Assembly (NCBI GenBank): GCA_008080745.1
Contig: SHMX01000003.1
Span: forward strand, 180,001 to 212,000
DNA: 32,000 nucleotides
Source: Candidatus Thorarchaeota archaeon
GTDB lineage: Archaea > Asgardarchaeota > Thorarchaeia > Thorarchaeales > Thorarchaeaceae
Direction of reading: 5' to 3'
Shown: positions 24,549 through 28,335 of the stretch, in pieces
Layout of the letters: each line of letters opens with the position of its first letter
How positions within the stretch are numbered: position 1 is the stretch's first letter
Position numbers and translations under genes: made by a program
The notes under the pieces: generated by a model
The model's input: the letters and a program-made list of their open reading frames with translations, nothing else
Databases searched by the model: none
What the model was told of the DNA's origin: nothing

Positions 24549-24627
24549 AATGACCAAATCCGATAAGTATATGGTTAGGTTTCGCAGGCATATGAAATCG
24601 GAGAGCTGAATCTTGCAGGTCGAATTT

Positions 24628-25383
24628 ATGATTACATTTGAAGACATAATTGTCTATTTCATTGCAGTGCTCTACGCTGTAACTGTATTGACTGTTGCAG
24701 ATGTTGCAAGAAGAAAGTTGAATATGGGTTCTGATTTTACACGAAAAATAGTTCATCTATTTGCAGGTGCAGCAATTTGGACAGTTCCATATTATCCCCA
24801 TCCGTGGGTGGCAACCCTTGTAGCACTAACGTTTGTGATTATGTTGGGGATGGCAAGCTCTCATCGATTTGAGAGATTTTTCCATGCTATGGCAAGAAGT
24901 GAAGATGAACAGAGTGATTCAGTAAGGGGTCCATTCTGGTACGCGGTATCTATTACAGTACTGACTGCAATATTCACATTTACTGGAAATGATGCCTGGT
25001 ATTTCATAGCTGCTGCTGCAATTCACATCATGATGCTAGGTGATGGTCTCTCTGCACCAATAGGGATGAAATGGGGGGTTAATCATTGCATAGAAATCAA
25101 AGGTTCAAAAAGAAGTCTTCATGGTTGCTCAGCACTCTTTATCTTTGGATTCATTGGCTCTCTGATAGCATTCTGGTTCTTTGGAGTTGTTAACTATCAG
25201 GTCTTTGTTAGTGGAGGACAAATCCTCTTCATTGAGATGATAATTTTAGCACTAGCCGGAGCTGTAACTGCCACACTTGTGGAACTAGTTAGTCCAAAAG
25301 GCACCGATAATGTAACGGTTCCAATGATTTGCACTGTTGTCATGTTCTACATCGCAATTTTACTTGGAATAATCGTGATATAG
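24628..25383 (+). CDS. CTP-dependent polyprenol kinase (dolichol/phytol/farnesol kinase family), integral membrane protein
   Basis: RKIVHL, GDGLSAPIG, KRSLHG, ELVS...DNVTVP motifs; multiple TM segments; ATG 24628. Confidence 0.85.
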   Translation: MITFEDIIVYFIAVLYAVTVLTVADVARRKLNMGSDFTRKIVHLFAGAAIWTVPYYPHPWVATLVALTFVIMLGMASSHRFERFFHAMARSEDEQSDSVRGPFWYAVSITVLTAIFTFTGNDAWYFIAAAAIHIMMLGDGLSAPIGMKWGVNHCIEIKGSKRSLHGCSALFIFGFIGSLIAFWFFGVVNYQVFVSGGQILFIEMIILALAGAVTATLVELVSPKGTDNVTVPMICTVVMFYIAILLGIIVI

Positions 25384-25384
25384 A

Positions 25385-25960
25385 TTATCTCTTTGAATCA
25401 ATTACCAAACGATAGTAATATGTTCGACCTGCGGTTTCACTAGCACGTTCAACACGAATGACTTGCCCAGTTCGTGCTCCAAGAACTCTAGCTGCGGGAT
25501 CATCGCGGCGTATTCGAGGAAGATGGGGTTTGTCAATTCCATAATGATCGAGAACAAGATCTACTTCATCTTGATCAGCAATTGTATGTTCTGGGACCAA
25601 ATCATGCCCGAAAAGATCAAATGAGGCATAATTACCCTCGACTAGTTCTATGCTATTCTTACGTGAGTGCTTTTTAGCTGCTGGTGTAAATCGAGCGCCT
25701 CCCACAATCATCCCGCGTGTCGCATCTTCCAATTCCATATCCCGTTGGATATCACGAGCCACAGCTACACCAACTACTTTGGGTTCTTTCAAGACCCATA
25801 CAATCATTTTGATAGTGATTCCCTCATCATTAGTTCGAGTGGGATGCATCACATAACGATTCTCATATTCAAATAACTCATCGACCTCATAACCCCTTAA
25901 AGTTAGGAGAGATCTTGTCTTCATTACGACTGTGGGAAATTCAACCAAAATACTCAACAC
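25385..25960 (-). CDS. rpoH: DNA-directed RNA polymerase subunit Rpb5/RpoH, two-domain (jaw plus assembly) form, paralog 2
   Basis: C-terminal HDLVPEH...LPRIRRDDPAARVLGA..G.VIRVER.SETAG..YYR; N-terminal RGY, EPKVVG and TPAA align with eukaryotic Rpb5. The true start may be TTG 25948. Confidence 0.92.
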   Translation of the reverse strand: MLSILVEFPTVVMKTRSLLTLRGYEVDELFEYENRYVMHPTRTNDEGITIKMIVWVLKEPKVVGVAVARDIQRDMELEDATRGMIVGGARFTPAAKKHSRKNSIELVEGNYASFDLFGHDLVPEHTIADQDEVDLVLDHYGIDKPHLPRIRRDDPAARVLGARTGQVIRVERASETAGRTYYYRLVIDSKR

Positions 25961-25972
25961 CAGAGCTAATTA

Positions 25973-26002
25973 CAACTCTCCGAGTTGAGGATATAAGGTT
26001 TC
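25973..26002 (-). promoter_or_regulatory. Putative internal promoter (BRE-like plus TATA) and palindromic operator for Rpb5 paralog 2
   Basis: Minus strand GAAACC-TTATAT (26002-25991), then CAACTC-N3-GAGTTG (25973-25987), about 30 nt upstream of the start codon. Confidence 0.45.
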
Positions 26003-26023
26003 TTGAATGGCTATGCCGACTAT

Positions 26024-26581
26024 CTATCTTGCACCATCAACTACCAGACGGTAGTAGTACGTCATACCAGCAACTGGACTTTCGCGTTCTATTCGAACAA
26101 TCTGGCCGGGTCTTGCTCCCAAGACTTTTACAGCTGGATCTTCTCGGATTATCCGAGGTAATTCAGACCGGGTGATCCCATAATAGTCCAGTAGCATATC
26201 AATTTCATCTTCATCTGCAATCCGATGTCGTGGTACAAGATGATGTTCAAAAAGATCAAATGAAGCATAATTGCCTTGAATAAGCTCCACCCGAAGCCCC
26301 CGAGCACTCTTTTTCGCCGCTGGAGTGAATCTCAAACCTCCAACCAGCATACCAATACTAGCATTTTGTTCTTGCATCTCGAGATTGAGGTCTTTCACAA
26401 CCGCGATTCCTATCACAGAAGGCTCTTTGAATATCCATACTACCTGCTTAATCTCTGCACCATTTTTCTTACGTGTGGGATAAAGGGCATATCGATTTTC
26501 ATATTCAAACATCTGAGATACTTCGAAACCACGCATGGTCAATAGGTTTCTTGTCTTGATTATGATTGCTGGTAAATCCAC
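26024..26581 (-). CDS. rpoH: DNA-directed RNA polymerase subunit Rpb5/RpoH, two-domain form, paralog 1
   Basis: GTG start with GAGGTG; HHLVPRH...LPRIIREDPAVKVLGARPGQIVRIERESPVAG..YYR; N-terminal RGF, EPSVIG, TPAA. Confidence 0.92.
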   Translation of the reverse strand: MDLPAIIIKTRNLLTMRGFEVSQMFEYENRYALYPTRKKNGAEIKQVVWIFKEPSVIGIAVVKDLNLEMQEQNASIGMLVGGLRFTPAAKKSARGLRVELIQGNYASFDLFEHHLVPRHRIADEDEIDMLLDYYGITRSELPRIIREDPAVKVLGARPGQIVRIERESPVAGMTYYYRLVVDGAR

Positions 26582-26583
26582 TA

Positions 26584-26654
26584 TTTGTCACCTCGACAAA
26601 GAAATTCAGAGCCAGCGACTGTAATTTGCTAATAAGTATTGTCAATATTGACAA
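26584..26654. promoter_or_regulatory. Two TTGTC...GACAA inverted repeats upstream of Rpb5 paralog 1
   Basis: Perfect 16-bp palindrome TTGTCAATATTGACAA (26639-26654) and TTTGTC-ACCTC-GACAAA (26584-26600), the latter enclosing the ribosome-binding site. Confidence 0.5.
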
Positions 26655-26694
26655 AGAAGTAATAATAACGGCACTGGCGAAAAACCAATGCCAT
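26655..26694 (-). terminator. Stem-loop downstream of the desulforedoxin-like gene
   Basis: Minus-strand AUGGCAUUGG-UUUUUCG-CCAGUGCCGU, a 10-bp stem whose G-U pairs work only on the minus strand, followed by UAUUAUUACUUCUUU. Confidence 0.5.
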
Positions 26695-26703
26695 TTTGAA
26701 TAA

Positions 26704-26829
26704 CTAGTCCTCTTCTTTGTATAATCTCATGGGTTGTCCACAACAAACCAAGGTCCCAGGACCAGATTTCTGAACAACAACAATTTGCTGACAAATATCA
26801 CATACATAAGTTGCGCCTTCTTTCGCCAT
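26704..26829 (-). CDS. Stand-alone desulforedoxin-like Fe(Cys)4 mini-protein (41 aa)
   Basis: MAKEGATYVCDICQQIVVVQKSGPGTLVCCGQPM: CxxC...CCGxPM signature; GGAGTG before ATG 26829. Confidence 0.88.
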   Translation of the reverse strand: MAKEGATYVCDICQQIVVVQKSGPGTLVCCGQPMRLYKEED

Positions 26830-26951
26830 AGTAGTCACTCCACAGGTTAATCGTTTCAAAATAATATTGCACAGATTTATGGTTTTCTTCATGACCAAGT
26901 ATTCAAGTAGACCTTTGTAATCACTTCAAGACCAATATGGAGAACAAATAG

Positions 26952-27906: not shown

Positions 27907-28335
27907 TTGGCTGCCGGACTAACCAAGGGAATGATTGCGGATATTCGCAAAAAAAGAGATATCAAGCTTCCAGAAGAGTTCTTTGCAAATCCAATGCTCA
28001 AAGACATGAAAGCTGCAATGGTGATATACTTTGAACGATCAGGCGAGGTCAAGTTATTCCCCATGATGCGAAAAAGTGGTGCGAGAATCCGATTAGAAGT
28101 CGAGAAAGTTCATCGAGAATTAATGGAAACTATGACAAAGCTATTCAAGGAGAAGAATCTCAAAGTCTTGTTCTCAACAGGATTTTGTTTTGAACAAAAT
28201 AGATGCATATACGAAGTATACTTTTCCTCAGATGATATAAAACCGAAGGAAAAAGCAATCAGGGATACCTTAGAAAGTATTCCAGGTCTCTTTGAAAGCG
28301 AATTTGAAATTTTACAATTAGGTGAAGAATGGTAG
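27907..28335 (+). CDS. Putative AbrB-like plus ACT-like domain regulator
   Basis: TTG start after GGAGGT; N-terminal IRKKRDIKLPEEF...VIYFERSGEVKLFP has AbrB spacing; C-terminal beta-alpha-beta-beta-alpha-beta ACT-like pattern. Confidence 0.55.
   Translation: MAAGLTKGMIADIRKKRDIKLPEEFFANPMLKDMKAAMVIYFERSGEVKLFPMMRKSGARIRLEVEKVHRELMETMTKLFKEKNLKVLFSTGFCFEQNRCIYEVYFSSDDIKPKEKAIRDTLESIPGLFESEFEILQLGEEW

Follow-up and report, generated by a model that had tools for sequence, protein, structure and literature searches.

A retained tandem pair of eukaryote-like, two-domain Rpo5 genes in one family of Thorarchaeia

Why should an archaeon keep two genes for the same subunit of its RNA polymerase? Archaea are described in reviews as transcribing all their genes with one RNA polymerase (PMC7289017, PMC6690254, PMC3906176), and the archaeal subunit RpoH, or Rpo5, is stated to lack the N-terminal domain of eukaryotic Rpb5 (PMC3906176, PMC6690254). 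A stretch of 32,000 nucleotides from a Candidatus Thorarchaeota genome (assembly GCA_008080745.1, contig SHMX01000003.1, positions 180,001 to 212,000 of the forward strand; the window) contains two adjacent genes, rpo5 copy A and copy B, that each encode a complete Rpo5 assembly domain preceded by a domain resembling the Rpb5 jaw. The original prediction, made from the letters of the window, took the pair for an old retained duplication of jaw-bearing Rpb5-type subunits and proposed that this lineage may assemble two variants of RNA polymerase. The duplication is widespread in the family and is kept by selection in both copies, in line with that dating. The features of the locus, in window coordinates, are as follows.

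26024..26581, minus strand: rpo5 copy A, the upstream paralogue; 185 amino acids, GTG start at 26581, stop at 26024-26026; open reading frame (ORF) and hidden Markov model (HMM) matches.
25385..25948, minus strand: rpo5 copy B, the downstream paralogue; 187 amino acids, TTG start at 25948, stop at 25385-25387; ORF and HMM matches.
26267..26581, minus strand: N-terminal jaw-like domain of copy A, residues 1-105; read as a dead PD-(D/E)xK, Mrr-type fold with TPAA.
26027..26266, minus strand: C-terminal RpoH/Rpb5_C assembly domain of copy A, residues 106-185; PF01191 at residues 108-180, E 3e-24.
25628..25948, minus strand: N-terminal jaw-like domain of copy B; Mrr_cat at 25.7 bits, aligning with copy A throughout.
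25388..25627, minus strand: C-terminal RpoH/Rpb5_C domain of copy B; PF01191, E 1.3e-24.
26589..26594, minus strand: ribosome-binding site GAGGTG of copy A, 7 nucleotides before the GTG start, read from the sequence.
26630..26645, minus strand: promoter element of copy A resembling a B recognition element (BRE) and TATA box, TTGACAATACTTATTA, 54 nucleotides before the start; a motif match only.
25991..26005, minus strand: BRE/TATA-like element of copy B, CAAGAAACC-TTATAT, in the 75-nucleotide intergenic spacer, 48 nucleotides before TTG 25948.
25958..25961, minus strand: ribosome-binding site GGTG of copy B, 9 nucleotides before the TTG start.

Both genes are present as intact minus-strand ORFs with a full Rpb5_C domain each. 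BLASTP aligns the two proteins with 108 of 186 identities (58%), one gap of one amino acid and E 2e-88, which bears out a hand count of 107 of 186, and the motifs pointed out in the paralogues (RGF/RGY, EPSVIG/EPKVVG, FTPAA, RKKNGAE versus RTNDEGIT and SPVAG versus SETAG) were all found. The longest ORF of copy B runs from a GTG at 25960 (25385-25960, 191 amino acids), and its start was put at TTG 25948 from the alignment with 35 orthologues beginning M-V/I-E-F/L-P. The pair is not an assembly repeat because it lies inside a 548-kb contig and recurs as the same tandem pair in other genomes.

A survey of 86 genomes of the same family, in 16 genera, found tandem pairs in 36 genomes of five genera (g1, to which this genome belongs, g3, g4, g6 and g15) and one gene in each of the eleven other genera, so the duplication is not restricted to this assembly. 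In the 36 genomes both frames are intact, always in tandem, in the same slot and on long contigs. That slot is the same across the family, with TatD, HD, a CinA-like molybdenum cofactor (MoCF) protein and a membrane protein on one side, and desulforedoxin, an ORF of 142 amino acids and a ribbon-helix-helix (RHH) protein on the other. The single-copy genera have their one gene in the very slot of the tandem pair. The downstream copy has been lost in the g6 genomes G055 and G077, where the slot holds an unrelated ORF of 152 amino acids (L081:3711-4169 in G055) that is likely to encode a membrane protein; the copy that is left has an additional methyltransferase-like ORF on its upstream side. Among 301 Asgard genomes, second copies outside the family were found only in G285 and G310. 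G310, from another Asgard family, has two visibly similar long-form Rpo5 genes (L115:1775-2341 and L116:1843-2397) 100 kb apart on one contig, one of them head-to-head with a gene for transcription factor B (TFB). Their duplication is probably a separate one, being outside the family and dispersed instead of tandem.

The canonical archaeal RpoH gene is single-copy and usually the first gene of an rpoH-B-A'-A'' operon. The rpo5 of this genome differs in having an N-domain, in its two copies and in being unlinked from the rpoB-A'-A'' operon. The genome comprises 3.16 Mb in 19 contigs and is estimated to be 98% complete with 4.8% contamination. It has these two Rpb5_C genes only, one RpoB match, and an operon rpoB-rpoA'-rpoA''-L30e-NusA-S12-S7 on another contig, in which no rpoH was found before rpoB. 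The pair is therefore the cell's sole candidate for polymerase subunit H. Distinct polymerase cores for the two paralogues were looked for in this genome and not found, and with one rpoB and one rpoA'/A'' set any polymerase variants would share the same core. Close homologues of the two proteins carry the database names Thorarchaeota and Lokiarchaeota. The rpoB region is not uniform in the family: in two g6 genomes (L088 in G077 and L089 in G065) there is no rpoA' within about 4 kb downstream of rpoB, and rpoA' is near rpoB in every other family member whose examined stretch extended far enough. This may be an insertion or an operon rearrangement.

The C-terminal half of both proteins is an ordinary Rpo5. 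PF01191 (Rpb5_C) is matched end to end by both copies with 84.9 and 86.2 bits (cut-off 23.5), and the NCBIfam RpoH equivalog NF007129 with 90.9 and 88.9 bits (cut-off 83). Over the last 78 residues the identity to Rpo5 of Thermococcales is 53-55%. In an AlphaFold 2 (AF2) model the domain superposes on archaeal Rpo5 chains with a template modelling (TM) score of 0.87-0.91, normalised to the target, and a root-mean-square deviation (rmsd) of 1.2-1.6 A; the canonical subunits of 75-90 amino acids (PDB 8cro_H, 4qiw_H, 2waq_H) resemble it with a TM score of 0.9 on the target. A complex model of copy A with Rpo1'' of the same genome reached an interaction prediction score from aligned errors (ipSAE) of 0.75, compared with 0.01 for the best control. 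That mark was attained by 58 of 80 solved complexes and by 2 of 110 mismatched pairs, and the runs had a contact agreement of at least 74% and a partner predicted local distance difference test (pLDDT) value of at least 79.

The predicted interface with Rpo1'' comprises 36 residues, all in the C-domain and within residues 104-184 of copy A, and 25 of these are identical in copy B. Interface positions match the single-copy consensus to 81% in upstream copies, 83% in downstream copies and 84% in single-copy genes, and the match at non-interface positions is lower in the paralogues (65-67% vs 73-75%). With the interface kept and the remaining positions more diverged, the changes that followed duplication sit on the exposed surface, away from the docking face. 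The predicted Rpo1''-contact residues were thus checked for loss and are kept in both copies as in the single-copy orthologues.

The nature of the N-terminal domain is less straightforward. It had been assigned to Rpb5 and not to the Mrr nucleases, and Pfam prefers the opposite: Rpb5_N (PF03871) matched none of 58 relatives at E <= 1, whereas Mrr_cat (PF04471) matched all 58 (best E 8e-9). Copy B scores above the 21-bit cut-off for Mrr_cat and copy A, with 20.9 bits, falls just under it. The family NA-iREase1 (PF22722) of inactive restriction endonucleases was also matched by 53 of the 58. On this formal point the assignment failed. It stood in that the catalytic triad is not conserved and the fold is a dead one: among 49 N-domains, no member of an acidic-acidic-lysine triad is invariant or at least 90% conserved. 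Only R17, G58 and T86 are invariant in the domain, T86 being the threonine of TPAA, and P87 is at least 90% conserved. The position two residues before K52, which we take to be the site of the catalytic lysine from the HMM coordinates and the family consensus, is isoleucine or valine. A KEPSV or KEPKV block is found in the two copies here.

Homology of the N-domain to the eukaryotic jaw, as originally claimed, is upheld by a profile of the N-domain as well as by the model of the full-length protein. The profile, built from the 49 N-domains only and searched against all PDB sequences, gave 11 matches at E <= 10, all to eukaryotic Rpb5. The best was human Rpb5 (E 1.7e-5, query 38-92 on residues 63-116), with the EP-x-V-G block and the TPAA/TPSA motif lined up in the alignment. 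A phmmer search with copy A against PDB sequences gave an unbroken alignment to human RPB5 over residues 46-180, a stretch that spans both sides of the boundary between the domains. The full-length AlphaFold model has a pLDDT of 87.5, and its top 34 Foldseek matches are all polymerase chains of the Rpb5 family, 32 eukaryotic and two from the RNA polymerase of African swine fever virus (ASFV). It superposes on eukaryotic Rpb5 with both domains, over about 200 columns and with a TM score of up to 0.78. When the N-domain of copy A is folded alone (AF2 pLDDT 92) the result is more ambiguous. The model matches Rpb5 with a TM score of 0.58-0.69, rmsd 3.1-4.8 and 17-24% identity, and EndoMS with E 7e-5, better than that of Rpb5, a TM score of 0.61, rmsd 7.3 and 12% identity; the nucleases AF1548 and MspJI are matched as well.

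Eukaryotic Rpb5 (RPABC1), which is shared by Pol I, II and III (PDB 1dzf, 5xog_E, 7vba_E), has the same architecture, a dead PD-(D/E)xK jaw followed by Rpb5_C. In yeast Rpb5, P86, P118 and the 'TPSA domain' face the downstream DNA (PMC6690254). The full-length likeness is a TM score of 0.77 at 24-28% identity, TPSA is kept as TPAA, and the EP(S/K)V-G block has the first jaw proline. Compared with eukaryotic Rpb5, the Thorarchaeia N-domain lacks about 25-35 residues towards the N-terminus; it is also missed by Rpb5_N and occurs in tandem paralogues in an archaeon with one polymerase core. The catalytic domain of Mrr-type endonucleases (PF04471; AF1548 1y88, MspJI, EndoMS/NucS) has the same fold and is matched about as well as Rpb5, but the Thorarchaeia domain lacks the conserved triad and is fused to a polymerase subunit. 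Our reading is that the N-domain is a dead Mrr-type PD-(D/E)xK fold homologous to the Rpb5 jaw and, sequence-wise, between the Mrr nucleases and Rpb5_N.

Long frames of about 180-250 amino acids occur in many families among the 301 Asgard genomes and short ones (81-125 amino acids) in others. Asgard archaea already possess the jaw half of Rpb5, in the form of a dead Mrr-type domain fused to RpoH, and its intermediate sequence suggests a pointer to the origin of the eukaryotic domain. In a genome of another Asgard family an Rpb5_C match (G039:C63:11510-11713) falls within a frame of 465 amino acids, which may be a multi-jaw form. A single-sequence phmmer search with the N-domain in a library of 1.8 billion representatives gave 15 matches, mostly of 62-190 amino acids; these short ones are presumably Rpo5 of the Thorarchaeia type or fragments. 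Two matches were proteins of 2,122 and 2,976 amino acids with repeated partial matches.

The age of the pair can be approached from the gene tree. In a maximum-likelihood tree of 103 sequences each two-copy genus has one clade of upstream copies and another of downstream copies, both with strong support, so the pair is older than the radiations of g6, sampled with 28 species, and of g3. Copies of g1 and g15 pair by position (support 77/85 for upstream and 90/47 for downstream copies), and the downstream copies of these two genera share a one-residue insertion. Deeper relationships are less clear, as the backbone of the Rpo5 tree is a polytomy. In the best tree the two g6 copies group as sisters (75/94), as do, weakly, the two g3 copies, and a topology with all downstream copies in one clade was not rejected by the approximately unbiased (AU) test (p 0.41). 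The genera likewise collapse into a polytomy in a species tree from RpoB, A' and A'' (2,255 columns), where the earliest branches are the single-copy genera g16, g5 and g11. The two paralogues of one genome share 58-74% identity, much like orthologues between genera (about 60-64%). In nine of ten genus pairs the downstream copies are more similar to each other than upstream to downstream, by 1-5 points, a weak signal of orthology. Nothing points to recent gene conversion, the nucleotide identity between copies being 62-69% and the highest for any 60-nucleotide window in any genome 92%. One old duplication followed by losses and several parallel tandem duplications are both possible on these sequences. 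In either case the duplication lies inside one family of Thorarchaeia and implies no orthology to the Rpb5 paralogues of eukaryotes.

Neutral evolution was seen in neither copy. The ratio of nonsynonymous to synonymous substitutions between orthologues (dN/dS; Nei-Gojobori) lies at 0.06-0.16 in g3, g4 and g6, whichever copy or domain is taken. In g1 dS is saturated; copy A there has a dN of 0.147 and copy B one of 0.055, i.e. copy A evolves 2.7 times faster. Set against the orthologues in the sister genome, copy A is at 78% identity, copy B at 95% and RpoB at 98%. This asymmetry is found in g1 only; branch lengths are similar in g3, g4 and g6. Of the 81 columns with at least 90% conservation in a set of 23 single-copy genes, 69 are unchanged in copy A and 78 in copy B, and the 12 changes in copy A are all conservative, including three from glutamate to glutamine and one from arginine to leucine. 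Family-wide, 94% of the C-domain columns are retained by both classes of copy, and of the N-domain columns 89% by upstream and 87% by downstream copies.

Differences in jaw charge and in the SPVAG/SETAG loop had been put forward as distinguishing the paralogues. They are real in g1, where the N-domains have net charges of +5 and 0, but do not mark out the paralogues in g3, g4, g6 and g15. Downstream copies of g1 and g3 keep the first jaw proline, and those of g4, g6 and g15 have another residue in its place. All three candidates for a paralogue-defining signature were therefore rejected, since they vary by genus and not by copy.

The regulatory regions seem to have been duplicated together with the genes. 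A motif TTGACAAT-N-TTTATAT is found 50-58 nucleotides before the start in 35 of 35 upstream copies and 25 of 25 single-copy genes, and is followed in both by a ribosome-binding site of the GGGTG type; a Shine-Dalgarno-like element lies within 30 nucleotides in 29 of the 35 upstream copies. All 35 downstream copies, in five genera, have a TATA-like hexamer 49-69 nucleotides upstream, in the short spacer, which in g6 is still the full ancestral TTGACAATGTTTATAT. GGGTG or GGTG stands at the same position in 33 of them. These promoter-like elements are matches to sequence motifs; a look for RNA sequencing runs over 25300-26700 found none listed. As the downstream copies keep a TATA-like element, the duplicated unit appears to be promoter plus gene, with the second promoter-like element retained. 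Start codons differ between the copies, being ATG in 32 of 35 upstream copies and TTG or GTG in the downstream ones.

The spacer also holds an inverted repeat, CAACTC-GGA-GAGTTG at 25973-25987 (minus strand), just 3' of the TATA-like element of copy B. The spacer of the sister genome G001 (L023) has a different palindrome, CCCCAATTC-A-GAATTGGGG, at the same place. Because the symmetry is kept and the letters have changed, a structural element fits better than a fixed operator sequence, for instance a hairpin ending the transcript of copy A, or a structure in the DNA.

What could two such subunits do in one cell? On balance it is probable, if only just, that both are working Rpo5 proteins which compete for one site and give two populations of one polymerase with different jaws, in a possibly regulated ratio. 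A tandem duplication of promoter plus gene would have left each copy with a promoter-like element and a ribosome-binding site. The C-terminal domain would dock on Rpo1'' at the enzyme's one Rpo5 site, and the dead-nuclease jaw would sit by the downstream DNA. With one core and one docking site the two proteins would be incorporated alternatively, and the resulting polymerases would be alike except for the lower jaw, which is exposed, and for the part of the Rpo5 surface outside the interface. The differing start codons and separate promoter-like elements could allow the cell to adjust how much of each form it makes. We infer that both copies are expressed and assembled, and the two forms may have different functional properties, such as in promoter opening, in contacts with factors or in resistance to inhibitors that bind the polymerase.

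Several observations weigh against this reading or against a simple story of specialised polymerases. The single catalytic core does not fit the latter. No residue, loop or charge was found by which upstream copies can be told from downstream ones across the five genera, and a shared specialised role would predict one. Loss of the downstream copy in G055 and G077, together with the eleven one-copy genera, indicates that the second form is dispensable. The complex model covers copy A only, and its pass is evidence of likeness only, as similar complexes have been solved and may simply have been reproduced by the predictor. The two polymerase variants originally proposed may plausibly exist, with the one rpoB/rpoA core and the lack of a consistent divergence signature counting against different tasks for them. 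The more ambitious version, in which an Asgard family swaps a paralogous eukaryote-like jaw subunit under separate promoters to make two versions of its polymerase, in an arrangement that possibly arose more than once, is tentative and rather doubtful. Recurrent origin is possible because the g6 pair and, weakly, the g3 pair are sisters in the gene tree and because G310 has its dispersed pair.

The separate promoter-like elements and the systematic difference in start codons would equally be expected if the two proteins did the same job and only their expression had been divided by duplication, degeneration and complementation, the divergence being neutral drift of the surface. The lack of a residue signature common to all genera and the concentration of divergence outside the predicted interface agree with this. 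However, dN/dS is 0.06-0.16 in the two N-domains as well, which shows constraint on the exposed jaw in each paralogue, and extra dosage is not obviously favourable, given that excess Rpo5 reduced growth in M. maripaludis (PMC13556214). Such a partition of regulation or dosage is a serious contender and still unlikely. It is a good deal less probable that one paralogue works off the enzyme, as a free regulator, a partner of an assembly chaperone, or a decoy competing for Rpo1'', a jaw-binding factor or a viral inhibitor. The faster evolution of copy A in g1, with its glutamate-to-glutamine and arginine-to-leucine changes, would suit this role, and polymerase-associated paralogues have turned into regulators before, TFS4 being a polymerase inhibitor in Sulfolobales (PMC7289017). 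Yet the rate asymmetry is confined to g1, the 12 substitutions of copy A are conservative, and this same copy keeps the predicted Rpo1'' interface and gave the high ipSAE in the complex model. Transient redundancy, decay, mis-assembly or contamination is hardly credible as an explanation: the estimated contamination and the loss of the downstream copy in one g6 subclade speak for it, against intact frames in 36 genomes of five genera, in one slot, on long contigs and with dN/dS far below 1. Artefact, contamination and pseudogene were accordingly ruled out by spread, synteny and purifying selection.

Some observations on basal factors and on neighbouring genes were made along the way. The present genome (G000) has 12 TFIIB cyclin-repeat matches, corresponding to about six TFB paralogues, some of them in tandem (e.g. 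C5:12641, C1:425957, C4:168874 and 169923, C5:29025 and 30262). The whole family has 4-7 TFB, a large repertoire of basal factors for a non-haloarchaeal archaeon. A link between the number of Rpo5 copies and the TFB count was considered, and no conclusion is drawn, because TFIIB-repeat matches number 9-15 in two-copy genera and 8-14 in single-copy genera, ranges that overlap and come from related genomes. Directly upstream of the Rpo5 pair and on the same strand lies the desulforedoxin gene (26704-26898, minus; Pfam Desulfoferrod_N, E 8e-13), whose conserved core begins at an internal methionine and which is present at this place in most genomes of the family with 58-98% identity. Converging on copy B is a gene for a membrane protein of 256 amino acids (24613-25383, plus), conserved in the family at 55-92% identity, and beyond the EamA gene lies the ORF of 142 amino acids (27907-28335, plus; 63-92% identity); both are without a Pfam match.

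Second, diverged copies of Rpb5 under selection beside the canonical one are known from plants (NRPD5/NRPE5 of Pol IV/V) and trypanosomatids (RPB5z) (PMC6690254). Those eukaryotic paralogues go with different catalytic cores, whereas the Thorarchaeia pair goes with one. Among archaea, paralogues of TBP and TFB (haloarchaea, Sulfolobus TFB3) and TFS1/TFS4 likewise diversify or regulate a single polymerase, and reviews treat archaeal paralogues only for TBP, TFB and TFS (PMC7289017). These are dissociable factors, and the Rpo5 pair are subunits of the enzyme. Neither a two-domain archaeal Rpo5 nor a duplicated Rpo5 or other retained pair of archaeal polymerase-subunit paralogues was found described in the literature searched, which was not exhaustive. 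What is new is thus a long-retained paralogue of a polymerase subunit in which both copies are constrained and each has a promoter-like element, an unreported arrangement of a known subunit family.

If the copies are interchangeable, the pair is no more than a housekeeping gene in duplicate, kept for a long time for its regulation. Specialised eukaryotic polymerases such as Pol IV/V and trypanosome Pol I owe their origin in part to paralogues of shared subunits. If two forms of the polymerase do exist in these Thorarchaeia, they would set a precedent among prokaryotes for the route, through subunit paralogues, along which eukaryotic Pol I, II, III, IV and V later diversified, and the archaeal case would make the first step of that route accessible with one catalytic core and with the existing recombinant reconstitution of archaeal polymerase.

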